Assembly: GCA_964486565.1 (NCBI GenBank)
Contig: CAZANS010000001.1
Span: 1-38,283 of the forward strand
Length of the DNA stretch: 38,283 nucleotides
Origin: an uncultured Victivallales bacterium
Lineage (GTDB): Bacteria; Verrucomicrobiota; Lentisphaeria; Victivallales; JAADHT01
Direction of reading: 5' to 3'
Part shown: piece after piece, positions 9,172 to 38,117 of the stretch
Position numbering within the stretch: position 1 is the stretch's first letter
Layout of the letters: every line of letters starts with the position of its first letter
Notes under the pieces: generated by a model
The model's input: only the letters and a program-made list of their open reading frames with translations
Database searches by the model: none
Told to the model about the DNA's origin: nothing
Translations under genes and position numbers: made by a program

Positions 9172-11456
9172 TTATCATCCCTTTCAGGCGCGGTAAGCAT
9201 GGCGAATATTATAGCGTTGCCGATGGCTCCCCCGGTGATGAACTGGAGTTTGCCGTCCCTTTGGGAGGGAGCACCCGCGAGGCACAGAGTGGCATAGAGC
9301 CTGATGAAGAAATGCCTGTCACGGAACATCCTCGCACCGGAGATTGAAAATCCCGTGGCCGAGGCGCTGAAACCCAGGAATATAGGCCCGGAGTCTATAT
9401 CGCCTGTTTCACCTCGCAGCCCTGCCGGGTACTCCTTCACCCCGCCGAATCTCAGGAATGATGAAGACAGCTCGTCCTTGAGGCTTTTGTAGAGCCTCCC
9501 TGCCATGGCTGGCTCCCCGAAGGAAAGCATGTAGATGCCCAGGGATGTTCCCGAGCCTCTGGGGTGGTCCGCCCTTTCGCCGGACAAGGGATTTATGCAC
9601 TGTATCAGCAGCCCGGTATCCTTGTCGGTATAGCGCGCCTCTAGGAGACGAAGGGATTCCTCCAGAAGCTCCCCGCTGCCCATCCCAGTGAGTTTATGGT
9701 GCAGCATTGCCGAGCCCAGCACGGCGCAGTTGTCAACGGGGTAAATCTCGCCGGGGTAGCTCTGCAGCAGGCGCAGGGTGCTTTGTCCGAGCCTGTCGAG
9801 CAGGTGTTTTGATATGCGGTCGTTCAGTTCAGCGAACCTCGACTCCAACACCAAGCTGCGATGCAGCGAGAGCGCAAGATTGAAGTAGCCAAGAAACGCC
9901 GCATGGTCCTTTTCAGATCCGATATCGTCTATCGGGTCGCTGCCCCACACCTCCAGGTCGAAGGATCTGGTGCCGGGATCAAGAATCCTGTCCAGGCAAA
10001 GCTCCATCGAGGAAAGATGCTGCTGTCTATGTTCGGCGTGCTTCATGGCCATCTGCCCGAAGCCCATCGCCGCCATCATGTATGACCCGAAAAGCCATTC
10101 CCCGTCGAACTGCGCCGATCCAGTGGAGAAATTCTCCCTTGAAAGGGATTGCCTGACAATGAAGTCAACATGGCGTGCCAGGGCGTTCTGGAGCGCGGGA
10201 TCGTTGTCGTACCACAGCCCTGCCCCCCTCGAGCACCACCAAGCCGGGAAAGAGTACAAGGCAATGACGAAGATCGCCGCGCAGGCCGAAGCCTTGGCGA
10301 TTGCCTTGAATTTAGGAATCCTCATTCCCTTGTGGAGGCCGAAGGCCTTTGCCGCCACCGAGCACACCAGGCCGAATGGCAGATAGCCCGAGTACCCCAA
10401 AACAGGCATCTCGAATATCCTCATCGCGTCAACGTAGGGTATGGCGTATGTCCACTTGGCGAGGCTGTGCCAGTTCCACATCTCCCAGAAGAAACCGCAG
10501 CACAGCGCCGCTGCCGCCAGCAGGCAGACATCTCTCCAGTCGCCGTCTGCGATATCCGCAAGGAATGTTTTTCTGCCGTAGAGCATCATCGTGGCCGACA
10601 GCATTCCCAGCGGCGCGAGCCAGAGCAGCGGGAAGAGCTGGCTTGGGAATATCCCGAGCATCAGCATCCCCGCGGAGGACAACAGGAAGATTGTCGCGGC
10701 GGCAGGCTTGGAATCGAGTCTAAAACAGATGAATCTGTCTAGCCCGGGAGACAGCCGGGGAAATGAACCGAGCAGGTCGCGTGTGCCCAGCACTGCCGGG
10801 AGGACAGTCGAGAAAGGAAGCGTGGCGAAAAGAAAATATTCCATAGCGCCCATGCCGCAGACACCCTCGTAAAACCAGTTCTGAACAAAACGGTTGAGAT
10901 ATTCGAAACTCCACCAGAAGCACGCGCTGGCCAGGAAAAGAGACGCGAAATATGTCTTGTTGTCCAGCATCATGCACCTTCCCGTCCGCCTGGATGCACA
11001 TGCGTTGACTGTCACAATGTAGGACACCCACAAGGGTGTAAATGTCATGTCCTGGAAACTAGAGAACCACTCGAGGCGTGTCCATGCCAGGAACCAGGAG
11101 CATATCCCGGCAACTATCCCCAGTGTTCCCCACCAGGGCCACTTGTGCCTTTCCCCCTGTTTATCCTGTCTATCAGAGCCGTTCAGGTCACCGCCCCCGG
11201 GGAGCTTGCGAAATTCGCAGAGGTTCGCTTTTACGACTCTCGCGACAAACAGGCAGACTACCGCGATGACAAGCATAGCCAGGAGGGCGAATGCCACCCA
11301 TGAGAACCCCGCATGCTCGACGTACTGCGAGACCGGGGGGAACTCGAGGTATCCGGGGGTAAGCCTCCCCGTCAAGCGAAGACCCGCCAAAGGCAGCAGA
11401 AGCAGCAGAAGGGCTGTCCCTGCCATAGCTTCCGGATAACGCACCCTGTTGTTCAT
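9168..11456 (-). CDS. Large (762 aa) polytopic membrane protein with a roughly 370-aa soluble alpha-helical C-terminal domain; function unknown
   Basis: I use the ATG at 11454-11456, which overlaps the TGA of the regulator gene (ATGA). The track ORF continues to 11774, but that stretch overlaps the regulator in another frame and is R/G/A-rich junk. The N-terminal half has many TM helices and the motif FWEMWNWHSLAKWTYAIPYV..FEMPVLGYSGYLPFG. The C-terminal half is hydrophilic and helical. Confidence 0.85.
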   Translation of the reverse strand: MNNRVRYPEAMAGTALLLLLLPLAGLRLTGRLTPGYLEFPPVSQYVEHAGFSWVAFALLAMLVIAVVCLFVARVVKANLCEFRKLPGGGDLNGSDRQDKQGERHKWPWWGTLGIVAGICSWFLAWTRLEWFSSFQDMTFTPLWVSYIVTVNACASRRTGRCMMLDNKTYFASLFLASACFWWSFEYLNRFVQNWFYEGVCGMGAMEYFLFATLPFSTVLPAVLGTRDLLGSFPRLSPGLDRFICFRLDSKPAAATIFLLSSAGMLMLGIFPSQLFPLLWLAPLGMLSATMMLYGRKTFLADIADGDWRDVCLLAAAALCCGFFWEMWNWHSLAKWTYAIPYVDAMRIFEMPVLGYSGYLPFGLVCSVAAKAFGLHKGMRIPKFKAIAKASACAAIFVIALYSFPAWWCSRGAGLWYDNDPALQNALARHVDFIVRQSLSRENFSTGSAQFDGEWLFGSYMMAAMGFGQMAMKHAEHRQQHLSSMELCLDRILDPGTRSFDLEVWGSDPIDDIGSEKDHAAFLGYFNLALSLHRSLVLESRFAELNDRISKHLLDRLGQSTLRLLQSYPGEIYPVDNCAVLGSAMLHHKLTGMGSGELLEESLRLLEARYTDKDTGLLIQCINPLSGERADHPRGSGTSLGIYMLSFGEPAMAGRLYKSLKDELSSSFLRFGGVKEYPAGLRGETGDIDSGPIFLGFSASATGFSISGARMFRDRHFFIRLYATLCLAGAPSQRDGKLQFITGGAIGNAIIFAMLTAPERDDK
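11206..11220. repeat. Iterated near-palindrome TGCGAAWTTCGCA, exact copy 1
   Basis: ttgcgaaattcgcag, inside the 762-aa membrane protein gene, read as C-E-F-R-K. Confidence 0.85.
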
Positions 11457-11854
11457 GATGCACCACCTCGCAGGCGAACAGCGGCGACACCGCCGCCATG
11501 CGGTATAGCGGCGTCCTTTGCCCTCGCAGCAGGCAAAGCGCTCATGGCCTCCCTCAGCACAAGCTCCAAGGCCCGCAGATAATCGTTGAACTGATCCACT
11601 CCCTTCTCTGAAAGACGGATGGTGGTGCAAGGCTTCAGCCTGACGAACTTCTTGCTGAGCTTTACCGCTCCCGCGTCCTGGAGGACCTTTAGATGCCGGT
11701 TCAGATTGCCGTCGGAGGCCTCGCAGGCCAGCTTGAGCTCGGTGAAGGTCATCCCTCCCGAGCTCGACGCGCACAGCGCCGACATGATCGCCAGGCGCTT
11801 CGGCTCATGGAATATCTTCTTCAAATCGTCGTAGGGATTGTCTTGCTTAATCAC
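11453..11854 (-). CDS. Winged-helix (ArsR/MarR-like) transcriptional regulator
   Basis: IFHEPKRLAIMSALCA..GMTFTELKLACEASDGNLNRHLKVLQDAGAVKL.K.F..LKPCTTIRLSEKG is a typical wHTH with a beta-wing. GTG start, preceded by GAGGTGA at a 6-nt spacing. Confidence 0.85.
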   Translation of the reverse strand: MIKQDNPYDDLKKIFHEPKRLAIMSALCASSSGGMTFTELKLACEASDGNLNRHLKVLQDAGAVKLSKKFVRLKPCTTIRLSEKGVDQFNDYLRALELVLREAMSALPAARAKDAAIPHGGGVAAVRLRGGAS

Positions 11855-11866
11855 TATTTTATCACC

Positions 11867-12470
11867 TCAATTCCCTTCTCTGCCATTTTCCCTCAGAAGA
11901 ATCATCCCCCCGACCGTCTCACCCACAAAAAATACCAGCCCCATCGGCCAAGCATTCGCAAAGGGCTGCGGGAAAACAAGAAAAAAAGCCCCGCAGGCCA
12001 TGTAGAACACGCCAACAAGATAATTGGCTCCAGGAAGATTGTTGCGGTAGGGCACATGCACCAAACCATACAATCCCATCCACATCCCGGGAAGCAGAAT
12101 AGTTTGACCGTGAAGAATCAACGACACTGAAAACACCGCCCCCCATCCCCAAGGCCGGCAGCGCATCAAACGCCGGGACAAGCCTGTCCAGACTCCGCCG
12201 AGCCTCGGGACTGTACAAAAACCAGTGGATCAATGAACCGTAATTCAACAAAAGCCCCAACGCCAGCACCACACCCCAACCAGCAAGCCGGGCATTGTCC
12301 GAAGCAGCCAGCACACCAGGCAACGACATCACCACCGCACCGCACAAAGCCGCAAGACCACCAAATATCCGCCCCCTACCCGAATATCCCCGGAAATTCT
12401 TGCGCTCCATCACCAGAGACTGAAGACGCCTCACCTGATCCAAGGCATCATGAACATGACTCGCTATCAT
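11867..12470 (-). pseudogene. Multi-TM membrane protein gene split by a +1 frameshift at a homopolymer (ORFs 11919-12503 and 11867-12181); first gene of the operon
   Basis: Frame A reads like a TM protein until ...PAFDALPALGMGG, then turns into implausible sequence. Frame B reads AVFSVSLILHGQTILLPGMWMGLYGLV...VFFVGETVGG from the same point. The switch coincides with the C6 run at 12139-12144 (G6 on the coding strand). The likely start is ATG 12468-12470 (MIASHV...), preceded by GGGGA. Confidence 0.6.
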
Positions 12471-12527
12471 AAACAAATCCCCATGAAATATCCAACTCAA
12501 CATCCAGCTTTACCGCAAAAACTAAGG

Positions 12528-12565
12528 ATAATATGACATCTAAAAAGTACTTTGCAAGGCAAAGT
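12528..12565 (-). promoter_or_regulatory. Candidate sigma70-type promoter with an overlapping 7-3-7 inverted-repeat operator, upstream of the membrane operon
   Basis: On the minus strand: ACTTTGC-CTT-GCAAAGT (12565-12549) contains TTGCAA (12557-12552), followed by an 18-nt spacer and TATTAT (12533-12528). It lies about 60 nt upstream of the first gene. Confidence 0.4.
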
Positions 12566-12677
12566 TTAAAGTTTTTTCGGTTTTTTTCTGCTGTAGGGCA
12601 ATTGTGTGGCCTCTTTGCGGGGTCGGCGCTACGGCACTGGAGGTGGAACAGGGGGAGGTGAGTGATGCTTGCCTGCC

Positions 12678-13499
12678 TCAGGCGGTTCTTTTCTTGACGG
12701 GCTTGTGGACTTTGCCGAAGTACTGCATGACTTTCTGGAGGTCTTCCCAGACGAGTTTCTTGGCATCCTGGTTTCTGAGGAGATACGCCGGATGGAAGGT
12801 TGGCATGACTTTGATCCCTTGGTAGGAGTCCCATCTGCCCCGGAGGCCTGTGATCCCGGCCTTGTTGAGGATATGCTTTAAGGGGACTGCGCCCAGGAGG
12901 ACGATGACCTTGGGGGAAACGATCTCGATCTGGCGCTTGAGGAAGGGCATGCAGGTCTTGGCCTCGGAGTCTTCCGGCACTCTGTTCCCAGGCGGTCTGC
13001 ACTTGACGATATTGGCGATGTAGACATCCGAGCGCTGGAACTGCATCGAGCCGATCATCTTGGTGAGGAGCTGTCCGGCGGCACCGACGAAGGGCACGCC
13101 CTGGTTGTCATCCTCGCTCCCGGGAGCCTCGCCTATGAACATCAGCTCCGCCGGAGCCTGACCGCAGCCGAAGACAACGTACTTCCTTCCATTGTGCAAG
13201 GGGCATCGGGTGCACTTCACAGCGACCTGGCGCAGTGTCTGCATATCCATGGATGACAGATCCGGCATCGGGGTCGCTGCAATGGATGCCTCAAGTTTCG
13301 GCACAGGCGGGTTTTTCGAGCCGGACAGCAGGATGGCGGGCCTCCCCTTCCGGGTGTCGGTGCCCCTGGCGGACGTAGCCGGACCGGAAAAGAACTCCGA
13401 CATGGCTCCAGACGACAAATCTGCGAATTTCGCAGACTCGCCCTCTATCTGAAGGGTCGTGACGATATCGTCAAACAATGTGATGGTGTCGCGGGTCAT
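12678..13499 (-). CDS. Uracil-DNA glycosylase, family 4
   Basis: Contains CTRCPLH....VVFG.G...ELMFIGEAPGSEDDNQGVPFVGAAGQLL......YIANIVKCRPPGNR.P......C.PFL..QI.......IVLLG...........HPAYLLRN. The first ATG is at 13497-13499; the track start at 13526 is a TTG. Confidence 0.9.
   Translation of the reverse strand: MTRDTITLFDDIVTTLQIEGESAKFADLSSGAMSEFFSGPATSARGTDTRKGRPAILLSGSKNPPVPKLEASIAATPMPDLSSMDMQTLRQVAVKCTRCPLHNGRKYVVFGCGQAPAELMFIGEAPGSEDDNQGVPFVGAAGQLLTKMIGSMQFQRSDVYIANIVKCRPPGNRVPEDSEAKTCMPFLKRQIEIVSPKVIVLLGAVPLKHILNKAGITGLRGRWDSYQGIKVMPTFHPAYLLRNQDAKKLVWEDLQKVMQYFGKVHKPVKKRTA
13421..13435. repeat. Iterated near-palindrome TGCGAAWTTCGCA, exact copy 2
   Basis: ctgcgaatttcgcag, inside the UDG gene, read on the coding strand as A-K-F-A. 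This is a different frame from copies 1 and 4. Confidence 0.85.
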
Positions 13500-13601
13500 T
13501 AAAACATACCTTGTCTTGCATTTCAATTCCAGCCTCTTGGCCGCCCGGCCCGAGCCTCTTGAGCCGACATCCTAATCTAACGGCTGCTCGATGGGAGCTA
13601 C

Positions 13602-13842: not shown

Positions 13843-14086
13843 AACAGCTTGCCGTGTCTTGGTGGTCGAGTACAAGAATACGCGCGACTGGGATTAGCGG
13901 ACAACATCGAGAAGCGGCAGCTTGGCGCACTTTGGGAGCGGCGGCAAGGACTGGTCTGCGATACGTGCCAAGCTTGAAGGTTGACGATTACGGGTGAGGA
14001 GGAAGAGAAGAACGCTGATCGAGACGAGGGGCTGCCTGGGAACGCGGGGCTCTGTACCCGCTCTTCGATAGATTGGAGTGCAGATT

Positions 14087-16192
14087 CTACCAGTCCCTCA
14101 GGTTTTTTTTTGTCCTGGTGGATTTTTTCTCACGTTCTTTGAGTGCGTCACGGAGGTCTTTTTCCTCGTCGGCCATGAGTTCGAGGAGAGCCTCTGCCTG
14201 TGCGGGGTCTATCTCGCTCTCCTCCGGGGAGGCTTCCGCATCGGTTTCGCGAGTATCTTTATCAGGGCGCCTGTCTTGGGGCAGCTCACGATACTCCTGC
14301 TGCTCGGGCTTGTCCTTGTCCTCCCCCTTTTCGTTTTGGCTTTCGCTATCCTTATCGTCGTCTTTCTTTTCGGAGGCACCGAGGTGGTCCAGGGCGTTCT
14401 TGATATGATCCGCTGACTTTTCGCCCTTACCATCGCCGTGCTCGCTCATGGCCTGCTCGAGCTGCTCGAGAGCCTTGGTGGAGCTTTGCTCGATCTCCTT
14501 GTCCTGCTGTTTTTTCGCCTCCTCCTGGAGCTCCTGGACGGCATCTGCCGCCTGCTCCAGCTTTTCCTTTGTATCCCGGCGCTGCTGTTCCTTCTGTTGT
14601 TCGTCCTTTTGTTGGTTTTCCTTCTGTTGCTGCTGCATTGCCTGCTGTGTCTTGTCAACCGCGTTCTGCTGCTTGTCCTTCATGTCCTGCTGCATTTGTT
14701 TGATTTCCTTGGCCAGGGCGCGGTCGTGGAGAAGTTTCTGCTGGTTCAGGATCACATTTTTGAGGCTGGTGTCAGAGCGCATGGCCTCACGGTACAGCTC
14801 CTCTGTCCTGTCGAATACCTTAAGGGCCTTGTCTGGATTCCCCATCATCTCCTCTCGGCCGACAGTGTGTGATATCACACCAAGATTCTGGAAGGACTTC
14901 CCCCTTACCTCGGGCATGTCGGCAGACATGTTCACTGCCCTGTTGTATAGCTCGGCGGCCTCTGCCGTGTCTCCTTCGCGATGAAGCCTGAGGCCCTCAT
15001 TGTAGATATCTACAGCTGACCCTTTTGTTTGTTCTCTGACAGCCGGTTCGGGGTGGATCTCTCCCCCGAGTTCTAGTCCCCCGGAGCAAAATGCCATGCC
15101 GCCACCGAGGAAGCCGTCGAGGAACACGGCAAGAAACACCATCAGCGCCAGAGTTTTCGTTTCGCCTGCCGCCCTGAGTCTGGGAACTCCATTCCTCCTC
15201 TCCCCTATGCCTATACGGACAAGCAGCAGAAGCACCGCCGCAAGAAGCGGATAGTGAAACCTCTCTATCGGCCTCTTGTTGTGACCTTTCTCAAGCTCCC
15301 TTGGGACAAGGTTCCTGACTTTCTGAAGCACCGGCTGTAGCTCGGGCGAAGTCTCTGTTGAACGAGCGTATATCCCGCCCTCGACAGACATTGCCAGCGC
15401 CCTGAGGAGAGGCTCGTTGAGCCTGCTCACGACCAGCTCGCCAGCGGAATCGCGCAACAGGGCCGTCCTGCCGTCGTCGCCTCGGATTTTTATCAACCCA
15501 TCGCCGTCGGGATCTCCTATGCCAACAACAAATATCGGAATCTTCATCACCCTCAGCCTGTCAAGGGACTTTCGGGAATCCCCGTCCAGCTCGTCGCCGT
15601 CGGTCACAAGTATTATCGCCCTATGGCTCCCCTCGGCACCCTCGAACGCAGTCAGCGCAACACGTAGCGCCTGCTCGATGTTAGTTCCCCCCAAAGGGAT
15701 GCTGTCCGTGTTCAGCTCGTCCAGTGTGTGCATGAAGCTGGTCTTGTCAATCGTGAGGGGGCACTCGAGGAATGCGGACCCTGCGAACGCGATCAACCCG
15801 AAGCGGTCGCCCGGGCATTCCTTCACAAGCTCCCTCAGCAAAAGCTTGGCATGTTGAAGACGGCTGGGCTTAACATCTTCGGAGAGCATGCTCTTGGACA
15901 CGTCCAGCAAGACCATCAGATCCCTGCCCTGTCCCGAGAATGGAAGAATCTGCCAGCCCCATCTCGGCCTTGCCATCGCTACGACAAGCAGGCATATCGC
16001 GCAGAAAAGCAGCCACACCCGCAGATAGCGCCTCCCCTTTGAAAGGGTGGTGACCTGATGCTCGTCGGGGTTCCCGCCGAATATTGAGGTTAGCAAGTTT
16101 TTTTTCCTGACCGAAACGTAGTATACGAGCAGGGCGAAAACAGGCACTATCAGTGCCAGGCTCAGCAGAGACCATACGTTTTCGAATTCCAT
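14087..16192 (-). CDS. BatB-like von Willebrand factor A protein fused to a TPR region and a roughly 200-aa K/E/Q/D-rich tail
   Basis: N-terminal TM pair, then the VWA MIDAS motif DLMVLLDVSKSM...GGTNIEQAL...IILVTDGDE. A further TM segment follows, then a TPR-like stretch (AELYNRAVNM...FQNLGVI) and a low-complexity charged C-terminus. Confidence 0.9.
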   Translation of the reverse strand: MEFENVWSLLSLALIVPVFALLVYYVSVRKKNLLTSIFGGNPDEHQVTTLSKGRRYLRVWLLFCAICLLVVAMARPRWGWQILPFSGQGRDLMVLLDVSKSMLSEDVKPSRLQHAKLLLRELVKECPGDRFGLIAFAGSAFLECPLTIDKTSFMHTLDELNTDSIPLGGTNIEQALRVALTAFEGAEGSHRAIILVTDGDELDGDSRKSLDRLRVMKIPIFVVGIGDPDGDGLIKIRGDDGRTALLRDSAGELVVSRLNEPLLRALAMSVEGGIYARSTETSPELQPVLQKVRNLVPRELEKGHNKRPIERFHYPLLAAVLLLLVRIGIGERRNGVPRLRAAGETKTLALMVFLAVFLDGFLGGGMAFCSGGLELGGEIHPEPAVREQTKGSAVDIYNEGLRLHREGDTAEAAELYNRAVNMSADMPEVRGKSFQNLGVISHTVGREEMMGNPDKALKVFDRTEELYREAMRSDTSLKNVILNQQKLLHDRALAKEIKQMQQDMKDKQQNAVDKTQQAMQQQQKENQQKDEQQKEQQRRDTKEKLEQAADAVQELQEEAKKQQDKEIEQSSTKALEQLEQAMSEHGDGKGEKSADHIKNALDHLGASEKKDDDKDSESQNEKGEDKDKPEQQEYRELPQDRRPDKDTRETDAEASPEESEIDPAQAEALLELMADEEKDLRDALKEREKKSTRTKKNLRDW

Positions 16193-16264
16193 AAGCTTGT
16201 CAACTTTATCAAATCATGCCCTGAGTTTTTGACACTTGACAGAGGGCAAAGTTCCATGTGCTGT

Positions 16265-16279
16265 CTGCGAATTTCGCAG
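16265..16279. repeat. Iterated near-palindrome TGCGAAWTTCGCA, exact copy 3 (intergenic)
   Basis: ctgcgaatttcgcag, in the 111-nt spacer between the recN stop and the start of the Bat-like gene. Confidence 0.85.
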
Positions 16280-16303
16280 ATGGCTTGTTTTTTTAGGCGA
16301 TAT

Positions 16304-17956
16304 TCATGCCATTGACTTCAATAGTTCGGCGGCATGTATTTCCGCGGCCTTGCCACCTCCGAGCATTCGGGCGATCTCCAGCGCCCTCTCCTTTTTTGCA
16401 AGTCTCGCAACTGTTGCGAATGTCCTGCCGCCTTGCACGCTCTTCTCCACCTTGAAGTGCATTTCCGCGGCGGCGGCGACCTGGGGCAGATGTGATATGC
16501 ATAGGAGCTGGTGCGATTTCCCTAGCTTTCGTAGCTCGCGGCCCACCGCCGCAGCCGTCTCACCGCCGATGTTCACATCAATCTCGTCGAAGACCAGGAC
16601 TGGGATCGAGTCCGCCGCGGCCAGCACGGCCTTTAGCGCCAGCATGACCCTGGATATCTCCCCGCTGCTGGCGACCTTGCGCAGTGGACTGAGCCCCTCC
16701 CCAGGATTCGCGGAGAACATGAACTCGACAGAGTCGAAGCCACGTTCACCGGTATCCACCTTGGCGAACTCTATCTTGAAGTCTGCCTTCAGGAACCCTA
16801 GCGTCCTCAGGGTTTTGCCGACTTCCAAAGACAGCCTGGTGGCTATGCCTTTTCGTTTTTCGGAGAGCTTTGCCGCCGCTGCCTCGAGCGCCTTCCCCGC
16901 GTCGCAGCGCCTCTTCAGAAGAGATTCGCGAAGCTCGGAGAAATTGTCCAGCTCGGCCAGCTTCGCACCTGCGTTATCGGCTGTCTTAAACACATCCTCA
17001 AGCGACGGGCCGTACTTGTGCTTCAGCGATTGCAATGTCGCCAGCCTCTCCTCGAGCTCGATGAAGCGAGCCTCGTCAAGGTCTGTCCTGCCGCAGAAAC
17101 GCTCGATGTCCAAGGCCAGCTCGCGGCAGTTCTCCACCAAATTGTCACAGCGTGACTTGAACTGGTCAATCTCCTCGATCTCCAGCTTGCCCAACTGGAC
17201 CAACCCGCGCCGCAATTCAGCAAGGCGGTTTATGATGCTGTCGTCGTCCTCGCTGAGCGTCTGCGAAGCTATACGCGAGTATTCAAGTATATCCTTGGCG
17301 TGGGCTGCCATCTTGTGCATCTCGCCGACCTCGGCATCCTCGTTGGGCTGTGGGGCGGCGGAGTCAATTGAGGCTACGACGGATCTGAGATACTCTGCCT
17401 CGGCGGCGGACGGCAGGTTGTTCTCGAGGGCATCCAGATCCGCCTTCGCTTGCACAAGTGCCCTCCAGCAGCACTGTGTCTCTTCCCCGAGCTTCCCAAG
17501 CCCGCCGAAACTGTCCAGGATGTCAAGCTGCGCCGAGTTCCTGAGCAGCGACTGGTGCTCGTGCGGGCCGTGGATGTCAATCAAAAGGTCGCCAAGTTGC
17601 TTGAGCGTGTTTAGTGTTACGGGGGAGTCGTTTATGAAGTTCCTCGAGTCCGACGGGGTGATGACCCTTTTGAGAAGCAGCTCGCCGTCGTTCTGGACGG
17701 AATTTTTATCGAGGAACTCCGCTACAGCCGTTCCTGGGTTGCCCTCGAGAGCGATTCCAGCCGATATCTCGCATTTGTCAGTTCCGGCCCGCAGGACGTT
17801 CTTCGGCGCGCGCTCACCGAGGAGCAAGGACACTGCACCGACAAGGACGGACTTACCCGCGCCGGTCTCGCCGGTTATCACGTTGAATCCCGCGCCAAAG
17901 TCAATCTCACAGCTCTCCACAAGCGCAAGGTTCCTGATCCTTATCCATTGAATCAT
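16304..17956 (-). CDS. recN: DNA repair protein RecN
   Basis: IRNLALVESCEIDFGAGFNVITGETGAGKSVLVGAVSLLLGERA (Walker A) and C-terminal PLRKVASSGEISRVMLALK......PVLVFDEIDVNIGG. I favour the ATG at 17954-17956: GGGGGAG lies 6 nt upstream, and it forms an ATGA overlap with the upstream ORF. The track start is 17962. Confidence 0.95.
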   Translation of the reverse strand: MIQWIRIRNLALVESCEIDFGAGFNVITGETGAGKSVLVGAVSLLLGERAPKNVLRAGTDKCEISAGIALEGNPGTAVAEFLDKNSVQNDGELLLKRVITPSDSRNFINDSPVTLNTLKQLGDLLIDIHGPHEHQSLLRNSAQLDILDSFGGLGKLGEETQCCWRALVQAKADLDALENNLPSAAEAEYLRSVVASIDSAAPQPNEDAEVGEMHKMAAHAKDILEYSRIASQTLSEDDDSIINRLAELRRGLVQLGKLEIEEIDQFKSRCDNLVENCRELALDIERFCGRTDLDEARFIELEERLATLQSLKHKYGPSLEDVFKTADNAGAKLAELDNFSELRESLLKRRCDAGKALEAAAAKLSEKRKGIATRLSLEVGKTLRTLGFLKADFKIEFAKVDTGERGFDSVEFMFSANPGEGLSPLRKVASSGEISRVMLALKAVLAAADSIPVLVFDEIDVNIGGETAAAVGRELRKLGKSHQLLCISHLPQVAAAAEMHFKVEKSVQGGRTFATVARLAKKERALEIARMLGGGKAAEIHAAELLKSMA

Positions 17957-18402
17957 TTGCATCTCCCCCTAATCGAAGCTGCAGGGCGGAAAAACTTCAT
18001 CATCGCGAGTTCCGCAGGGTCTTTGGGCAGTTCCTCGGCGCCCGACGGGAGCAGAATCCCTGGATCCTCGAGTTTGATGCCGCCAACAAATGTCTGACTT
18101 CCTCTGAGAAGTATCTTGTCCCAGGAGACCGAGTCAAGGTAGTAGGTGACACCAAAATAGCCTGCCGCCCAAGGGGTTGGGGCGGAGGCACGGCATTCGC
18201 CACGGCGAAATGGCGGGCACAGGCAGTTGATGGTATGCACCAGCCATTTCGCCGCACCGCCTGCCGCGCCTGCGCTCCCAACGCGGTTCACGCGGAGTTT
18301 TGAAACTGGCTCCATAGTCATAGCCATCTGAAGAAAGACTCCCGCCAGGCAAGAGCGCAGGTTTGTTTTTCCCGACCCAGCATGTAGTACACCATATATC
18401 AT
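17953..18402 (-). CDS. Hypothetical 149-aa ORF, ATGA-coupled to both the M48 peptidase and recN; its central third is encoded by repeat family R2
   Basis: ATG 18400-18402 overlaps the TGA of the M48 gene. TGA 17953-17955 overlaps the recN ATG. The N-terminus GVLHAGSGKT resembles a P-loop. Codons about 24-77 coincide with the repeat at 18186-18311. Coding status is uncertain. Confidence 0.4.
   Translation of the reverse strand: MIYGVLHAGSGKTNLRSCLAGVFLQMAMTMEPVSKLRVNRVGSAGAAGGAAKWLVHTINCLCPPFRRGECRASAPTPWAAGYFGVTYYLDSVSWDKILLRGSQTFVGGIKLEDPGILLPSGAEELPKDPAELAMMKFFRPAASIRGRCK
18186..18311. repeat. Interspersed repeat family R2, composite copy (module A 18186-18251 in reverse orientation, plus module B 18262-18311)
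   Basis: Module A is the reverse complement of 7382-7447, about 59/66 by eye. Module B, ccgcgcctgcgctcccaacgcggttcacgcggagttttgaaactggctcc, matches 35181-35230 at about 46/50 by eye. Confidence 0.8.
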
Positions 18403-19302: not shown

Positions 19303-19317
19303 CTGCGGATTTCGCAA
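19303..19317. repeat. Variant of the iterated palindrome (TTGCGAAATCCGCAG on the minus strand)
   Basis: ctgcggatttcgcaa. Its reverse complement is identical to the 15-mer at 32883-32897. Confidence 0.8.
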
Positions 19318-23608: not shown

Positions 23609-23902
23609 TTAGTACTGACAACAACTCAAAAGGAAGTCCTCGTGCACACCTTCGGCTATCTGCCTGAAGGCATAGCGCACCTGCTCCTCATAGAGCTCGC
23701 AGAAAGCCCCTCTTGCGGAGAGGCTGCCGTTCATGGTGTGCGCCTCCGCCGGACAGGGGACGCCACAGAAATTGCGAATTGCGCAGTCGCGGCAGAACTC
23801 GATGTCCTCGGCAACCCTGGCGGTCATCTTCCTGAACGGGGTTGAGCCGAGTATCTCACGGAAGCAGGATGCTCCCGCTACTTTAGGAAGACCGCGCCAC
23901 GA
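23609..23902 (-). pseudogene. Radical SAM enzyme, C-terminal SPASM-domain remnant
   Basis: The open frame reads ...CFREILGSTPFRKMTARVAEDIEFCRDCAIRNFCGVPCPAEAHTMNG...FCELYEEQVRYAF. The cysteine spacing (C..C....C...CP) is typical of SPASM/twitch auxiliary-cluster domains. An in-frame stop lies at 23903-23905, and no radical-SAM core (CxxxCxxC) is found upstream. Confidence 0.55.
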
Positions 23903-28482: not shown

Positions 28483-29307
28483 ATGAGAAGCATCTCCGAG
28501 ATAGTCTCCGACCTGGAGAGAGGGGAAATTGATCTGCTGGTCGCTTTCTCAGAGCTGAACTTGAAGCCATGCCAAGGCGATGTTGACCTCGACCTTTCCA
28601 GAAGAAAGAGATGCGGTTTGCCGGAATTCATATTTGGGCAGGGGAAGACTCTCGGGCAGTTGAGAGGAATTGTCGAGCGTCTTTCTGCCGTCGGCGAGCC
28701 GGTGCTGATAACCAGGATATCCCTCGCTTCCGGAGAGGCACTTGCAACTGAGTTCCCCGACTCAATCCATGACCCCCAGCCCGGCATTTTCCTCCTGCCG
28801 GGGAAAAAATCCGCGAAATCCGCAAAAGGCATGGTGATCATCGCCGCAGCAGGGACGACCGACATGCCAGTGGCGCTGGAGGCAAAATACACCCTCGACG
28901 CCTGCGGATGCGGATGCCAAATGATCCCCGACTGCGGCGTGGCGGGCCTCGGGAGGCTGCTCGCAAGGACATCTCTGCTCAGAAAGGCCGACGTGGTCAT
29001 CGCGGTCGCGGGCATGGAGGGCGCACTCCCAAGCGTCGTCGGAGGCTTGGTAAGCTGCCCCGTCATCGCCGTGCCCACAAGCGTCGGGTACGGCGCCTCC
29101 CTCGGAGGACTCGCAGCCCTCCTGTCCATGCTGAACAGTTGCGCCAGCGGCGTGACTGTGACCAACATTGACAACGGCTTCGGCGCCGCATGCGCGGCGG
29201 CAAGGATAATAAACTCAAAAGCCAAAGCGCAACTGGAAAAGTTGCGCACTCCAGAGCCTGCGGCGCATGATCCGACGGCGAGGCCCCCGTCCCTCCCAAA
29301 AACATGA
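28483..29307 (+). CDS. larB: Nickel-pincer cofactor biosynthesis protein LarB (AIR-carboxylase-like)
   Basis: Contains D..R..R.G.PE.I.G.GKT, AAGT(T/S)DMPVA.EA, VAG.HRL-type loop, AVAGMEGALPSVVGGL...PVIAVPTSVGYGAS.GGLAALL.MLNSC..GV.V.NIDNGFGAA. The last roughly 30 codons are encoded by repeats R1 and R3. Confidence 0.9.
   Translation: MRSISEIVSDLERGEIDLLVAFSELNLKPCQGDVDLDLSRRKRCGLPEFIFGQGKTLGQLRGIVERLSAVGEPVLITRISLASGEALATEFPDSIHDPQPGIFLLPGKKSAKSAKGMVIIAAAGTTDMPVALEAKYTLDACGCGCQMIPDCGVAGLGRLLARTSLLRKADVVIAVAGMEGALPSVVGGLVSCPVIAVPTSVGYGASLGGLAALLSMLNSCASGVTVTNIDNGFGAACAAARIINSKAKAQLEKLRTPEPAAHDPTARPPSLPKT
28811..28825. repeat. Variant of the iterated palindrome
   Basis: ccgcgaaatccgcaa, inside larB, read as S-A-K-S-A-K. 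Confidence 0.6.
29222..29280 (-). repeat. Interspersed repeat family R1, copy 2 (inverted relative to copy 1); on the minus strand the hairpin and T-rich tail lie downstream of dnaB
   Basis: The reverse complement reads cgccgtcggatcatgcgccgcaggctctggagtGCGCAACTtttccAGTTGCGCtttggcttttgagtttatt. The stem is identical to copy 1 and the loop differs. It lies inside the 3' end of the larB ORF on the opposite strand. Confidence 0.8.
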
Positions 29308-32678: not shown

Positions 32679-32685
32679 TTCCTCC

Positions 32686-33291
32686 TTATCGCTTGTCATG
32701 GCTTATGCCGTTATATTCGTTCATCGCTGCATCTAGTCCGCGGTACAGAGCCAGCTTGACGGCGTCGGCGGCGGTCTCAAGCGCCAAGCCGAACACCTCC
32801 TTGTCATGCTCGTCGTCGAAGTCTCTGAGCACATGACTTGACTGGTCGGGGCACTCACCCCTGCCGATTCCGACACGGACTCTTGCGAAATCCGCAGAGC
32901 CGAGCCCGGCGATCACAGACTCGACTCCGTTGTGCCCTCCGGCTCCTCCGTCCTTACGTATCCTTATTTTCCCCAAAGGGATATCCATGTCGTCATAAAC
33001 GACCAATACCTCCCGGGGTGCCAGCCCAGCCGCGTTTGCAATCCTCGACACGGCCCCGCCGCTGAGGTTCATGTAGGTCTGCGGCTTCGCCAGCAGAAGC
33101 CTCGAGCCTTTGCAATTGCCTTCCCATAGCTCAGCATTGCATCTCAGGCCGCTTTTGAACCGGCCCCTGAGCCTAGTGAAAAGCCTGTCGAGGACCATGA
33201 AGCCCGCGTTGTGCCTGGTCGCGGCGTAGGACTTTCCGGGGTTGCCCAGGCCGACCACCAGCCTTATCCTGTCTTGAGACCCGTTTCCCAT
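32686..33291 (-). CDS. pth: Peptidyl-tRNA hydrolase
   Basis: Contains LVVGLGNPG..Y..TRHN.GF.V.D.L, YMN.SG and GG..GHNG..S. Confidence 0.95.
   Translation of the reverse strand: MGNGSQDRIRLVVGLGNPGKSYAATRHNAGFMVLDRLFTRLRGRFKSGLRCNAELWEGNCKGSRLLLAKPQTYMNLSGGAVSRIANAAGLAPREVLVVYDDMDIPLGKIRIRKDGGAGGHNGVESVIAGLGSADFARVRVGIGRGECPDQSSHVLRDFDDEHDKEVFGLALETAADAVKLALYRGLDAAMNEYNGISHDKR
32883..32897. repeat. Variant of the iterated palindrome (TTGCGAAATCCGCAG)
   Basis: Identical to the reverse complement of 19303-19317. It lies inside pth, read on the coding strand as S-A-D-F-A-R. Confidence 0.8.
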
Positions 33292-33328
33292 AAGCTCAGC
33301 GGCAGTGTCGGTTCTTGGAAATGCTCAA

Positions 33329-33994
33329 CTATTCCGACGCTTCCTCCTCGCCCTCCTCCTTCTTGTCTCCTCCTACAAGTTCGGGCTCGCCTGCCTCGGG
33401 TGCCCTGGCCACAGCCTCTTCCTCGGGCTCCTTCTCCATCCGCGGCAGGATTATATGCAGCACCGTTTGATCTGGATCAACAAGGGCTTTCACTCCCTCC
33501 GGAAACGCGATGTCTCCGACAAGCACGGCATCGTCGAGCTTGAGATCGGCGATGTCCAAGTCTATCGAGTCAGGAAGTGTGGAAGGAGTACATTCGACCT
33601 CGATCTCATGAAGCTGTATGTCGAGTATGCCGCCTTGGGACAAGCCCGCAGGGGTGCCGTGGGTATGTATTGTGACAAATGCCGTGATGACCTCGTCCAT
33701 CTTGACCTCCAGGAAGTCAAGATGCTTGGTCGTGCCGCTGAGATAGTCGTACTGCTCGTCCTTGATCAGCACAGTCAGCGCATCCCCTTCCTCGGGCTTC
33801 AAGTCCACTATCTGGATCTCCTTCCCGTGTATTGTCCTCCAGTCGCGCGAGCCCACCAGGATATGCCTTGGAGCCGAGCCGTGACCATATACCACCGCCG
33901 GTATGAATCCCTCTTTCCTTGCTCTTCTCGACGCTGCCGTGCCGGAACTGCCGCGCATCTTGACGTTGAATACTTTCCTCTTTTTGCCCGTCAT
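33329..33994 (-). CDS. rplY: 50S ribosomal protein L25 / general stress protein Ctc, with an acidic C-terminal tail
   Basis: Contains R...G...SRR.RKEG.IPAVVYG.G......L.V, H.DF.EV and a long-form Ctc C-domain. It sits in the pth-rplY-prs context. Confidence 0.9.
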   Translation of the reverse strand: MTGKKRKVFNVKMRGSSGTAASRRARKEGFIPAVVYGHGSAPRHILVGSRDWRTIHGKEIQIVDLKPEEGDALTVLIKDEQYDYLSGTTKHLDFLEVKMDEVITAFVTIHTHGTPAGLSQGGILDIQLHEIEVECTPSTLPDSIDLDIADLKLDDAVLVGDIAFPEGVKALVDPDQTVLHIILPRMEKEPEEEAVARAPEAGEPELVGGDKKEEGEEEASE

Positions 33995-34028
33995 TTTAAC
34001 TAATCCTCACAATAGATGATTGATGTTG

Positions 34029-34997
34029 CTATACCTTGAAAAGGGATGACACCGAAGCTCCCTCATGAATGTATCGGATGGCCTTTGCCATTATATCGGC
34101 TATGCTGAGAACCTTTATGCGCCCGCCGCAGTCGTCTTCTACGGGGACTGCGTTTGTTGTGATAAGTTTTGCTATCGGACTGTCAAGCAGCCTCTTCCTC
34201 CCGTCATCGGTCAGCAGGCAATGCGTGACAACCGCGAAGACCTCCTTCGCGCCGCTGGACTTCAGCAGTCTCGCCCCGGCCACGAGCGTGCCCGCCGTTG
34301 TCGTCATGTCGTCCGCAAGGATGCATGTCCTGTCCTTGACCTCCCCGACAAGATGCGAGGATTCCACGCTGGTGGCGTCAAGCCTGCGCTTGGCTACCAC
34401 CGCAAGACCCGCCCCGAGCATGTCAGCATAGGCATGCGCCATCTTGACCCCCCCTGAGTCTGTGGCCACTACCACGAGATTGTCCCCGGCATACTCCTTT
34501 AGATAGGGAACTATAACGGGAGACCCGTAGAGGTGATCCACGGGGATGTCGAAGAATCCCTGGATCTGCTGGGCGTGAAGATCCATGGTCAGGACTCTTG
34601 AAGCACCGGCCACGGTTATCAGGTTCGCCACAAGCTTTGCTGTTATCGGGACACGCGGCTGATCCTTCCTGTCCTGGCGCGCATAGGCGAAGTAGGGTAT
34701 CACAGCAGTAATCCTCGCAGCCGAAGCACGCTTCGCCGCGTCTATCATTATCAGCAGCTCCATCAAGGAATCGTTGGTGGGCTTGGATATAGGCTGGATA
34801 AGGAAGATGTCCGAGTTCCTGATGTTCTGGCAGAACTTGACGAATATCTCGCCGTCGGGGAAGCGCCTGTTCTCCACCATCCCAAGCGGGACGTTCAGCT
34901 TCAATGCTATCTCCTCGGCCAGCCTCAGGTTCGCGCTGCCCGAAAAGACAAAAAGCTCTTTTGACAAATCCATAGCCAAACTGCCGCTCCGATTCAT
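34029..34997 (-). CDS. prs: Ribose-phosphate pyrophosphokinase
   Basis: Contains LF.GS.N..LA..IA..L, RF.DGE..V, YARQDRK and DLHA.QIQGFF..PVD.L, plus the PRPP loop ILADDM..T(A)GT. An alternative start lies at 34973 (MDLSKELFVF...). Confidence 0.95.
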   Translation of the reverse strand: MNRSGSLAMDLSKELFVFSGSANLRLAEEIALKLNVPLGMVENRRFPDGEIFVKFCQNIRNSDIFLIQPISKPTNDSLMELLIMIDAAKRASAARITAVIPYFAYARQDRKDQPRVPITAKLVANLITVAGASRVLTMDLHAQQIQGFFDIPVDHLYGSPVIVPYLKEYAGDNLVVVATDSGGVKMAHAYADMLGAGLAVVAKRRLDATSVESSHLVGEVKDRTCILADDMTTTAGTLVAGARLLKSSGAKEVFAVVTHCLLTDDGRKRLLDSPIAKLITTNAVPVEDDCGGRIKVLSIADIMAKAIRYIHEGASVSSLFKV

Positions 34998-35180
34998 TGG
35001 GGAGAACGTCGCCGTTCCCTCGGTTCATTGCGCGCAGGCTCCATGCATGCGCTAGACCCAACCATCAGCCCCGATCCCGTATCCCATGCCACGGAAAAGG
35101 AGCCTTAAACTACAGGGGCTCTTCAAACTTACAATCATGAAATTAAAAAAAAACAGTTTTTTTGTCCCAGGAGCAATTTT

Positions 35181-35230
35181 CCACGCCTGCGCTCCCAACG
35201 CGGTTCATGCGGAGTATTGAAACTGACTCC
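35181..35230 (+). repeat. Interspersed repeat family R2, module B, second copy
   Basis: ccacgcctgcgctcccaacgcggttcatgcggagtattgaaactgactcc, immediately downstream (on the minus strand) of the kinase stop codon. It matches 18262-18311. Confidence 0.8.
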
Positions 35231-35234
35231 CAGC

Positions 35235-38117
35235 TCATCCGCCGCCCTTTGCCAAGCCCTCCGCCCATTTTCCCCATTTTGCCGCGTCGTCGCCATAGTC
35301 ACGGCCGCTGATTTCTCTGAGGCTCCCGAGCACAGCTTCCTTGACGTTTTGATTTTGAGAGGCGAGGAAGTGGATCAGGAAGGGTGCGGCATCCTCTCCG
35401 AAAGCGGCCATTGAATGGACGCATTGCCTCGCGGCGGGGATACTTGTGTTCTCTGTCTTCTGAAGCAGATTTTTCAGTAGCGGGAGTGCTTTTGACGGGG
35501 CAGTGAGTGGCAGCATCTCGGCGATCCTTTGGATCACCCGCATGTTGCTCTCTGTCTGTGCGATTGAGCTGACGGCATTGTATCCTGAAGGGTCGCCGAC
35601 ACCGGTGATTATGAATACCGCCGCCTCCCGGACGTGGGGGCGGGTGTCGGAAAGCAAGGCGGATATTTCCGAGGTCTCAGGCTTGCGCTTGTCAGCAAGC
35701 AGAACGATCGAACGTGCGCAGACTCCGACAAAATCCGGATCCTGGTCCTTCAATCCGGCGACAAGCAGGGACACCGCGTCGCCGTCACCGAGCTGCCCCA
35801 AGTCGTAGGCTGCGGCGATCCTCGACTCGACCGAGGCCCCTTTCAGGCGCGCCGCGATCGTCTCGACAGGCCTTTCCTGCCTGACCTCCGACCCGTCCAA
35901 CTCGCGGGTCATCTCCATCAAACGCTGCTGATGTTGGGCATGTGCCGAAATCACGTCCCCGAGCTGCGAGGTCACCGTGGCGGCCTTGGCCTTTATTCCA
36001 TACAAATCGAATATGCTGGTTTTGTCACGCGATGCCTGAAGCGCCTCCCTGGCCGCGGCACTGACCTTCTCGTCGGCATCCCCGTAAAGTCTGATTATAG
36101 TGTTCATCTGCGGCGAGGCGAGTGTGACTTTCGTCCCGCAGGTGCCCAGCCCCGCCGCACGCAGGTCGGGGTCCTCCTGCTTGTCGGTGGCCATCTTTAT
36201 AAGCTTGTCCATAGCCTCAGGCACCCATACGTCGGCGAGTGAACGCAGAGCTCCTATGCGGAGGTCGCGGGGCTCGGCCTTGTTCTCGGCGACCTTGAGC
36301 AATGCCTCTCCGGCTGCTTTCCTGTCGGCTCCCTCGAGCGCCCCGACCGAACGCAGGGCCGAAAGGACAGACATACGGCTCCTTTCAGACCGCGAGCTGT
36401 CGCCAAAAACCTCGGGAAGAGCATTTACAAAGCCTGTGTCCCCTGTCTGCTCGATCAGCAGGCAGGCCTGCGATACAACCTTGTCATCGCTCGATCCCAG
36501 GCAATATACCAGAAGAGGGGAAAGCTTCTTCCTGTCCTTCTCAGAGGAAAGTTTGCCGTCCTTATATCTTGCAGACATCTGAGTTATAATCGAGACTTGC
36601 CTTTCAGGACGGTTGCTCCTTATCTCAATCTCGGCATCGTCAAGAAAGCCTGCGGTGAAGAACAGATACCACAAGGCGACAAGGATCCCCGCAAGAGCGA
36701 AAGGCATCGCCATGACCGTGCCGAGCAACACTGGCTTCCTGCGCAGCTTGCGCCATACAGTCCGAAATGCCGGCTGTCCCTTGGCCGCCACCTTCGCCCC
36801 ATGCAGGCAGGCATCCAGATCCGCCACCAGTTCCGGCATGCTCTGGTAGCGGTTGCCAGGTTCCTTCTCCATGCATTTCAGGATGATGTTCTCCAAGTCC
36901 TTGCTAATGGTGTCAGGCGCGAGTTTCCGAGGGGGTATCGGGTCGTCGAAGACAACCTTCCTCACAGTCTCCACTACAGTGTTGCCCTGGAAGGGCTGCT
37001 CACCCGTCACAGCCTCGAAAAGAACGACACCGATGCTGTATATGTCCGACCTGGGGTCTATGTCGTGAATGAGGCCCCTTGCCTGCTCCGGGCTCATGTA
37101 GGCAGGAGAGCCCATCATCATCCCTGTCATCGAGAGCATGGTGTTGCTGTCAAGATCCTTGGCCAAGCCGAAGTCTGTCAGCATAGCCCTTTTGTTCTGC
37201 ACGTCGTAGATTATGTTTGCGGGCTTGATGTCCCTGTGGACTATCCCCGAATCGTGTGCCACGGACAACGCCGAGGCGATGTCGCGGATATGCCCAAGCA
37301 TCTCATCGTGAGCCATCCATTTCCCCGCTATGATCTTGTCGAATGACGGGCCGGCGATGAAATCCATCGTAAAGTAGTACTGCCCCTTGATCTGGCCTAC
37401 ATCGTGGATAGGAATGACATTCGGGTGGTTTAGCTGCGCGGTGGAACGTGCCTCCCTCATGAACCTCTTGAGCAGATCCTCGGAGGCATCCTCCCCGGCT
37501 ATTAGAATCTTAAGGGCTAGCGTCCTGCCAAGCTCTTTGTCCTCGACCTTGTAGACGATCCCCATGCCGCCCCGGGCGATCTCCTCCAGAATGGTGTACC
37601 TGCCGAAAGTCTTGGACGATATTCCCGTGGCCTTATTGTACTCCGCGGGGTCTTCCTCCCATGGGCTGGGGGATGCCTGCAGCTCAAGTGATTTTTTGGA
37701 ATCCTTCCCCTTCAGTTTCTCGAGAAGGATCGTCTCTCCGGCATTGGACGAAGGCTCCCCGGGGTCGGGAGTACCTGGACTATCCTCTTCCTCCACCACA
37801 GGCGCGTTGCCGACATCCGTCGAATCCACCTCCATCTCCCCAGTCGGCTCCTCGGCGTCAGCCTCAGGCCTGTCAGGATTGTCATAGTCCTGATTCAAAA
37901 CCACAACCTGCCAGTCGCACTTGGGGCAGTGCGGATACTCGGAGCAGTCAACGTCAACGACTTTTTTGCGAAATTCGCAAATGCAGCATCCGATTTCAAG
38001 CTGCCCTGGCACTGTCAGATCGGCGCCGCAGTCGGAACATGGGGGCAACCCGTTCAGCGCGACAGTGTCCTCTGTCTCGAATATCTGCCCACATCCTGTG
38101 CATCGCAGTGTTGTCAT
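35235..38117 (-). CDS. Ser/Thr protein kinase: two N-terminal zinc ribbons, a Hanks kinase domain, one TM helix, and a roughly 470-aa HEAT/armadillo-like repeat region
   Basis: Kinase motifs GRYTILEEIARGGMGIVYK, ALKIL, HRDIKPANI, DFGLAK and GSPAYMSPEQ. Zinc ribbons CTGCGQ...CSDCG and CCICEF...CPKCDW. TM helix VLLGTVMAMPFALAGILVALWYLFF. The C-terminal repeats contain D..VR..A..AL-type helices. I use the ATG at 38115-38117, 7 nt after the upstream permease stop; the track start at 38156 would overlap that gene. Confidence 0.9.
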   Translation of the reverse strand: MTTLRCTGCGQIFETEDTVALNGLPPCSDCGADLTVPGQLEIGCCICEFRKKVVDVDCSEYPHCPKCDWQVVVLNQDYDNPDRPEADAEEPTGEMEVDSTDVGNAPVVEEEDSPGTPDPGEPSSNAGETILLEKLKGKDSKKSLELQASPSPWEEDPAEYNKATGISSKTFGRYTILEEIARGGMGIVYKVEDKELGRTLALKILIAGEDASEDLLKRFMREARSTAQLNHPNVIPIHDVGQIKGQYYFTMDFIAGPSFDKIIAGKWMAHDEMLGHIRDIASALSVAHDSGIVHRDIKPANIIYDVQNKRAMLTDFGLAKDLDSNTMLSMTGMMMGSPAYMSPEQARGLIHDIDPRSDIYSIGVVLFEAVTGEQPFQGNTVVETVRKVVFDDPIPPRKLAPDTISKDLENIILKCMEKEPGNRYQSMPELVADLDACLHGAKVAAKGQPAFRTVWRKLRRKPVLLGTVMAMPFALAGILVALWYLFFTAGFLDDAEIEIRSNRPERQVSIITQMSARYKDGKLSSEKDRKKLSPLLVYCLGSSDDKVVSQACLLIEQTGDTGFVNALPEVFGDSSRSERSRMSVLSALRSVGALEGADRKAAGEALLKVAENKAEPRDLRIGALRSLADVWVPEAMDKLIKMATDKQEDPDLRAAGLGTCGTKVTLASPQMNTIIRLYGDADEKVSAAAREALQASRDKTSIFDLYGIKAKAATVTSQLGDVISAHAQHQQRLMEMTRELDGSEVRQERPVETIAARLKGASVESRIAAAYDLGQLGDGDAVSLLVAGLKDQDPDFVGVCARSIVLLADKRKPETSEISALLSDTRPHVREAAVFIITGVGDPSGYNAVSSIAQTESNMRVIQRIAEMLPLTAPSKALPLLKNLLQKTENTSIPAARQCVHSMAAFGEDAAPFLIHFLASQNQNVKEAVLGSLREISGRDYGDDAAKWGKWAEGLAKGGG
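37966..37980. repeat. Iterated near-palindrome TGCGAAWTTCGCA, exact copy 4
   Basis: ttgcgaaattcgcaa (perfect 7-1-7), inside the kinase zinc-ribbon region, read as C-E-F-R-K. Confidence 0.85.

Follow-up and report, generated by a model that had tools for sequence, protein, structure and literature searches.

A short odd palindrome built around TGCGAA-N-TTCGCA recurs in coding and noncoding DNA of a complete 38-kb contig from an uncultured Victivallales bacterium (CAZANS010000001.1; this whole stretch of 38,283 nt is referred to as the window) and is a property of one clade of Victivallales-like Lentisphaerota. We hold with high confidence that it is a real, non-neutral, DNA-level iterated motif that is read as a symmetric duplex site. 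The explanation that we favor overall, with confidence and doubt in roughly equal measure, is a highly iterated palindrome of this clade that most likely serves as a tag of self DNA.

In the window, the 13-mer TGCGAAWTTCGCA is present in four exact copies (11207–11219, 13422–13434, 16266–16278 and 37967–37979) and in seven copies at ≤1 mismatch, the three one-mismatch copies starting at 19304, 23773 and 32884. On average, 100 dinucleotide-preserving shuffles yielded 0.00 exact copies and 0.08 copies at ≤1 mismatch, and Markov models of orders 1–5 trained on the window predicted 0.001–0.005 exact copies. The palindrome therefore displays the order-of-magnitude excess over composition models expected of the highly iterated palindrome (HIP) class, and the view taken in an earlier, sequence-only reading of the window, that four exact copies are beyond chance, holds. 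All coordinates and sequences given in that reading were correct. The flanking bases extend the palindromes further than it had claimed, to two 17-mers TCTGCGAATTTCGCAGA and one 8-1-8 palindrome TTTGCGAAATTCGCAAA at 37965–37981, and its variant 15-mer TTGCGAAATCCGCAG is found twice identically (32883–32897 forward and 19303–19317 as the reverse complement). The third variant that it placed at 28811–28825 is present as a two-mismatch copy starting at 28812. Every copy that it listed exists, and the one-mismatch copy at 23773 had been missed.

The spread of the palindrome was assessed with a genome scan for the 17-mer, using one genome per species, which matched at least 116 stretches. Among the matches listed, 69 of 116 came from metagenome-assembled genomes (MAGs) labeled Victivallis, Victivallales, Victivallaceae, Lentisphaera(e) or Kiritimatiellota, labels that were taken over from the database records and could be erroneous, ‘Kiritimatiellota’ and ‘Victivallis vadensis’ above all; the remaining 47 of the 116 listed were single matches scattered over unrelated phyla, as chance predicts. 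At least 20 independent Lentisphaerota-type MAGs carry the palindrome. Sites other than the copy that brought each locus in are referred to below as unascertained. The 69 listed clade loci (484 kb) held 31 further exact copies with a W center compared to none in the 47 control loci (318 kb), and with any center base and ≤1 mismatch, 167 unascertained sites were counted in 522 kb. As a class, two-mismatch copies are more frequent in the clade than in controls (209 both-strand matches in loci of the Planctomycetes–Verrucomicrobia–Chlamydiae (PVC) group versus 9); individual ones may be chance. Loci fetched by protein homology, not by the motif, still carry the palindrome, with four sites in 12 kb of L175, two in 18 kb of L184 and one exact site each in L185, L186 and L176 (L numbers denote our loci); we calculate a probability of ~0.001 that 20 kb would contain one exact site by chance. 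The genome-wide frequency proposed as a check on the sequence-only reading was approached by proxy only, in ~560 kb of related genomes, in which the motif is enriched just as in the window.

Density varies by MAG from ~1 to ~10 sites per 10 kb, from which we estimate hundreds to thousands of sites per genome. MAG JAUUYH01 (40% GC) carries ~1 site per kb, with local extremes in a radical-SAM fusion gene (L074:3493–5280; seven sites at ≤1 mismatch within 1.1 kb) and a dehydrogenase gene (L086:2404–3564; six sites within 0.9 kb), each encoding a protein with several motif-derived peptides. No site at ≤1 mismatch was found in ~21 kb each of three related lineages, Lentisphaerota bacterium ZTH, Victivallis sp. 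Marseille-Q1083 and L183 (an 8.6-Mb genome), nor was an alternative ‘dialect’ palindrome seen in the same ~21 kb of each. In a rough neighbor-joining tree of RecN, motif-plus and motif-minus lineages fall on opposite sides. The 13-mer TCCCCGGACTGAA / TTCAGTCCGGGGA occurs three times in the 21 kb of L183 and may be a different repeated element of that motif-minus lineage. The closest relative of the window is MAG GCA_016930955.1, ‘Victivallales bacterium Zod_Metabat.1329’ (Prs 94%, RecN 92% and DNA ~80–83% identical); a search of metagenome contigs for RecN-related loci confirmed no relative. Viral contigs, whose hosts are not known, gave 58 single 15-mer matches, which is about chance level by our estimate, and none was multi-copy. 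In three ~40%-GC IMG/VR contigs (L003:69–143, L015:8674–8748 and L050:73–147), a one-mismatch copy lies 62 bp from an exact motif near a contig end; these contigs probably share one phage terminal region that has nothing to do with the spread of the palindrome through the clade.

The architecture of the motif is that of a strictly spaced inverted repeat. TGCGAA-N1-TTCGCA was found 128 times compared to zero for spacers of N0 and N2–12, and everted or direct arrangements of the half-sites occurred 0–2 times. The center base is nearly free (34 W versus 22 S among unascertained exact copies). When one-mismatch deviants were sorted by symmetric positions of the 13-mer, they concentrated at the outer and inner positions (16 at 0/12, 38 at 4/8 and 32 at 5/7), with 0 at 1/11, 2 at 2/10 and 5 at 3/9; GCG/CGC is almost invariant across sites. 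Symmetrized flanks carry Y at −1 in 102 of 112 half-sites, T at −2 in 60 of 112 and a weak A at −3, giving a 13–17-base odd palindrome, tYTGCGAA-N-TTCGCARa, with a full signal of a-T-Y-TGCGAA-N-TTCGCA-R-A-t and an estimated information content of at least 24 bits. Past ~2–3 bp the flanks have no common sequence, and copies share only ~17 bp. Fixed half-site spacing, here N1 only, together with symmetric mismatches and flanks, is what a palindrome bound by a dimer is expected to display. Because the 1-base spacing is rigid, the mismatch tolerance two-fold symmetric and the flanks symmetric, we infer that the motif would be recognized as duplex DNA by a clade-specific homodimeric protein.

A single strand of the palindrome could also fold, and a hairpin in mRNA or single-stranded DNA, with a 7-bp stem and a 3-nt loop, was weighed against duplex recognition. 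The 17-mer folds at −9 kcal/mol with a z-score of −4.3, and several intergenic copies lie 10–50 nt past stop codons. However, loop positions 5/7 vary like the paired positions 4/8 (32 versus 38 one-mismatch deviants), and mostly stay A and T. G·U-compatible variants on the sense strand are not favored (24 versus 32 of the opposite kind), mirrored compensatory double changes make up 10 of 106 two-mismatch sites with no clear excess, and sites are indifferent to gene orientation and position. A hairpin function is therefore very improbable.

The relation of the sites to genes and peptides was explored with gene calls from a self-trained codon-usage caller that calls both recN and the L25 gene correctly. 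Genes contain 89% of unascertained sites, compared to a coding share of 87% of the DNA (11% of sites are noncoding versus ~13% of the DNA). Sites are even along genes, with 25 of 183 within 200 nt of a gene start where ~20% would be expected; an association with 5′ ends or promoters, hinted at by the window copies, was ruled out on these 183 sites. The host genes are unrelated housekeeping genes, including murC, murE, murF, uvrB and those for an M20 peptidase, a glycosyltransferase and a radical-SAM enzyme. All three frames are used, 66% of coding sites reading xxT-GCG-AAN-TTC-GCA (A-K/N-F-A), 21% TGC-GAA-NTT-CGC (C-E-x-R) and 13% the third frame. AKFA occurred 59 times versus 1–6 times per permutation, ANFA 27 versus 0–3 times, and CEFR, CEIR and CELR 10–16 versus 0–5 times, an excess of ~10-fold or more that is encoded almost entirely by motif codons. 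These peptide counts take in seeded copies, and the excess persists once those are removed.

In the window, the exact 13-mer TGCGAAATTCGCA at 11207..11219 lies on the minus strand in gene 9168–11456/11774 (called product, 762 aa) and reads C-E-F-R-K-L. The 17-bp palindrome TCTGCGAATTTCGCAGA at 13420..13436 encodes S-A-K-F-A-D in the N-terminal extension of a family-4 uracil-DNA glycosylase (UDG; gene 12678–13526, minus strand), and its second copy at 16264..16280 is intergenic, between the recN stop (16304) and the start of a BatA/VWA gene (16192). The 8-1-8 palindrome TTTGCGAAATTCGCAAA at 37965..37981 reads C-E-F-R-K-K in the N-terminal region of a Ser/Thr kinase–HEAT protein (gene 35235–38156, minus strand). 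Among the one-mismatch copies, TGCGGATTTCGCA at 19304..19316 is intergenic, ~30 bp upstream of the start of an M48 peptidase gene (19274), TGCGAAATCCGCA at 32884..32896 encodes S-A-D-F-A-R in pth (32686–33291, minus strand), and TGCGAATTGCGCA at 23773..23785 is of uncertain coding status, with small open reading frames (ORFs) on both strands and no Pfam match. A weak two-mismatch copy, CGCGAAATCCGCA at 28812..28824, lies in an AIRC/LarB-like gene (28483–29307, plus strand), and a second two-mismatch copy is at 10548–10560. The frames assigned to the four coding copies in the sequence-only reading (CEFRKL, CEFRKK, SAKFAD and SADFAR) and the intergenic location of 16266, shared by 19304, agree with these calls.

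Comparison with homologs indicates how the copies relate to protein sequence. At the UDG site, ‘ESAKFA[ND]’ is kept in most of ~25 close homologs (47–75% identity), and more distant homologs have unrelated residues in this column. The 11207 copy falls in a hypervariable linker that follows a transmembrane helix; C-E-F-R-K was found in none of 39 homologs, and here too, more distant homologs have unrelated residues. A conserved peptide, the Pth segment S-A-[DN]-F-A-R, underlies the one-mismatch pth copy alone, so it is not the case that every coding copy corresponds to a conserved peptide motif. The same pth site is the same one-mismatch variant in L175, the exact motif in L184 and not motif-encoded in L176. 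Apparently, the motif becomes established at positions where its peptide is tolerated by the protein or is already similar to what the protein has there. Selection or spread at the DNA level instead of a shared peptide, as the sequence-only reading had argued, is supported by the use of three frames plus intergenic copies in proportion to coding density, by the motif-encoded peptide excess and by the unrelated residues facing the UDG and linker copies.

These data also bear on a global transcription-factor operator, or a by-product of common peptides or codon usage, as the source of the motif. An operator would fit the palindromic shape, and a peptide origin would fit the pth copy on its conserved segment and the murE copy, which lies near a conserved F-A-D known from Escherichia coli MurE. 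Neither idea accounts for the lack of intergenic or 5′ enrichment (11% versus ~13%; 25 of 183 versus ~20%), the use of three frames, the missing peptides in distant homologs at two exact coding sites of the window or the failure of Markov models up to order 5 to predict the motif. As a general account, this explanation is refuted, and we consider it the least probable of all.

Sites are retained between species beyond background. In orthologs at 65–86% DNA identity, most sites are kept with 0–1 change and the flanks have diverged; over 22 orthologous pairs with unascertained sites, core identity was ~0.87 compared to 0.73 in the 37-bp flanks, which is the conservation beyond surroundings expected of the HIP class, on a small and non-independent sample. 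The UDG 17-mer is identical in the ortholog on L144 despite 77% DNA identity of the gene and differing immediate flanks. Four coding sites present in one genome only differ from their orthologs by 3–9 substitutions without gaps, and in these four cases point substitutions create or erode coding copies at places where the encoded peptide allows it.

Copies could also have dispersed as a tiny mobile or inserted element of ~21 bp, driven by a transposase or nuclease. The motif resembles repetitive extragenic palindromes (REPs), REPINs and Rickettsia palindromic elements in being a dispersed palindromic repeat, the Rickettsia ones even in frame within genes; those elements are longer units that are transposed or inserted, and REPs are extragenic, whereas the present copies are ~17 bp, substitution-born in the coding cases, and follow coding density. 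One site does fit insertion: the alignment with L178, from the closest relative (83% identity), has a clean 21-bp gap exactly where the intergenic 16264..16280 copy lies, so substitution is not the sole route. Beside this gap (window 16170–16330 versus L178:3975–4110), the relative has CTTGCGGAACTTTGCC, which resembles a decayed motif copy with one extra base and two mismatches; instead of a simple insertion, the 16266 site may reflect a replacement or a shift. All four coding gain or loss sites, however, are gapless, flanks past ~2–3 bp are unrelated, sites have no intergenic preference, and site peptides align in register with homologs of Pth and UDG. For coding copies an insertion origin is largely refuted, the one intergenic indel being the sole exception, and it is very improbable for the motif as a whole. 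Taken together with the gene and peptide data, these comparisons show that the palindrome acts at the level of DNA and is neither a peptide motif nor a promoter, an operator or an inserted element, and that it is strong enough to shape protein sequence.

A DNA-level palindrome with conserved positions could instead be a site for a nucleoid-associated or chromosome-organizing protein, a dimer that positions, compacts or partitions the chromosome from intragenic palindromes, with selection keeping each site. matS/MatP, SBS/SlmA, NBS/Noc, parS/ParB and the KorB operators are 12–16-bp dimer-read palindromes and often intragenic, as here; two of them, matS and the KorB operator, are odd palindromes of 13 bp, and the length, strict spacing and symmetric mismatch tolerance of the present motif match their architecture. 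Genic location irrespective of transcription and conservation of positions between species also agree with such a role, and HIP1 itself is argued to act in nucleoid structure (PMC5861425). Numbers speak against it. Sites of the matS, SBS, NBS and parS type are few to tens per replicon, or tens per genome, and often regional, whereas the present motif occurs at 1–10 per 10 kb on many contigs per MAG, an estimated hundreds to thousands of copies. Every sampled motif-plus contig has sites, with no regional restriction seen under this ascertained sampling, and the window holds no candidate protein. We regard a chromosome-organizing site as unlikely, though it is the strongest of the competing explanations.

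The closest palindromic likeness is to HIP1 (GCGATCGC) of cyanobacteria. As described in the literature, HIP1 is palindromic, hyper-abundant, present in coding and noncoding DNA in all frames, conserved beyond background and not explained there as a peptide, RNA or regulatory motif; the present motif shares each of these features, including the use of coding and noncoding DNA in several frames that defines the class. PMC5861425 and PMC4390886 describe HIP1 as over-represented, conserved and clade-wide with lineages lacking it, and according to PMC5861425, its function was still unresolved after two decades of study. A 2024 preprint links HIP1 to transformation efficiency. HIP1 differs in being an 8-bp even palindrome, compared to 13–17 bp, odd and with a free center base; it belongs to a different host phylum, has no sequence relationship to the present motif and holds the targets of two orphan methyltransferases, whereas no such target or enzyme was recognized here.

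Methylation offers its own account of such an element. In Elhai’s model of a methylation-linked HIP, an orphan methyltransferase targets a sub-sequence, and methylation-dependent short-patch mismatch repair creates and maintains the full palindrome. The present motif is palindromic, hyper-abundant, used in all frames and clade-restricted with exceptions, as described for HIP1 (PMC4390886, PMC5861425), and its one-base deviants are strongly position-biased, as reported for HIP1 in PMC4390886. The pattern of variation fits less well, since the inner A/T and outermost bases vary most and leave two separate GCG/CGC blocks with no compact core. Twelve specified bases plus flanks far exceed known methylase targets, none of which was recognized inside the motif, and no methyltransferase gene was seen in the window. 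We judge methylation-linked maintenance improbable.

Uptake sequences provide the other precedent. The uptake signal sequences (USS) of Pasteurellaceae and the DNA uptake sequences (DUS) of Neisseriaceae are comparable to the present motif in length and information content, reach ~1 per kb, are each confined to one clade, lie mostly in genes with a frame bias and motif-imposed peptides, and are reported to be conserved at orthologous positions; the palindrome shows all of these properties. They differ in that USS and DUS are asymmetric and have an experimentally shown uptake role, whereas the present motif is a perfect palindrome known here from sequence alone; inverted pairs of USS and DUS act as terminators, and such pairs were not seen here. 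In our interpretation, the palindrome belongs with HIP1 and USS/DUS as a genome-wide iterated site that is not described in the literature searched. That search returned no paper with the motif sequence in a relevant context and nothing linking Lentisphaerae or Victivallis to an iterated palindrome or uptake sequence. The spaced-motif survey PMC5217627 mentions neither Lentisphaerae/Victivallis taxa nor the motif.

The self-DNA tag is favored because the product of copy number and information content finds its match only in known systems whose motifs are maintained by a force that acts genome-wide on own DNA (USS/DUS and HIP1). Only uptake sequences are known to combine such information content with hundreds to thousands of copies, HIP1 being the closest palindromic case. 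Such a tag would be read in DNA uptake, in recombination or in protection of own DNA, and would be kept up by biased conversion plus selection. By analogy, a role specifically in uptake or self-recognition is a tentative proposal. A fuller version, in which uncultured Victivallales would have a new system for recognizing self DNA, with the palindrome as its symmetric uptake or recombination signal and a dimeric receptor as its reader, is possible but doubtful. Of the four explanations that the sequence-only reading had offered without choosing among them (a HIP1-like palindrome, a DNA-uptake-type sequence, a site for an abundant DNA-binding protein and a hotspot linked to a modification system), the field is narrowed by the present data, not settled.

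Several observations weigh against the self-DNA tag. No recognizing protein, methyltransferase or competence link was found, the window itself having only an AraC-type regulator that is unlinked to the motif, and function is for this reason assigned by analogy only. Known uptake sequences are not palindromic. We know of no cultured motif-plus strain, and transformation in Lentisphaerota is undocumented in the literature searched. Because sites were mapped on contigs, the data are still compatible with a regional pattern like that of Noc, SlmA or MatP sites. Spacing in the densest locus, with distances taken by hand, is clustered and not even. The 22 pairs behind the conservation estimate are few and phylogenetically non-independent, and the clean 21-bp indel at the intergenic 16264..16280 copy is not a product of substitution.

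Apart from the palindrome, the window carries an ordinary chromosomal gene set, including rpoA, recN, dnaB, prs, the L25 gene, pth, lptF/G and genes for fructose-bisphosphate aldolase, the family-4 UDG and the Ser/Thr kinase. An Rfam search of the window gave no match. The minus-strand ORF at 9168–11774, whose 762-aa called product starts near 11456, consists of two homologous ~370-aa modules (ORF residues ~116–478 and ~490–866), each matching many stand-alone proteins of ~370–400 aa, with no Pfam match. A dispersed ~130-bp repeat at 18181–18313 is common to the window and its closest relative at 83–98% identity. Its other copies in the window are fragments (7382–7447, inverted, and 35184–35230), and it was also found at L178:3–83, L175:9697–9804 and L144:800–926 and, in L067, three times. 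Read on the minus strand, the full-length copy corresponds to the 5′ end of ORF 17953–18402 (MEPVSKLRVNRVGSAG...). Possible identities of the repeat are a mobile or REP-like element and a duplication of the 5′ end of a gene.

Hyper-abundant short intragenic motifs are rare, the well-studied cases being USS, DUS and HIP1. The palindrome, new relative to HIP1 in its length, odd-palindrome architecture, host phylum and lack of a recognized methylase target, provides a second, independent system for asking how such motifs arise and what reads them. Related lineages at similar protein distance lack the motif, and this pattern of presence and absence makes phylogenetic profiling for the recognizing protein directly feasible. 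The motif is also a sharp taxonomic marker for binning the clade, and it calls for caution in annotation, as A-K-F-A or C-E-x-R ‘motifs’ in proteins of the clade are DNA-driven. If the palindrome is indeed the signal of a self-DNA recognition system, this PVC lineage would have natural transformation or a comparable preference for its own DNA, with a drive strong enough to rewrite short stretches in hundreds of proteins.

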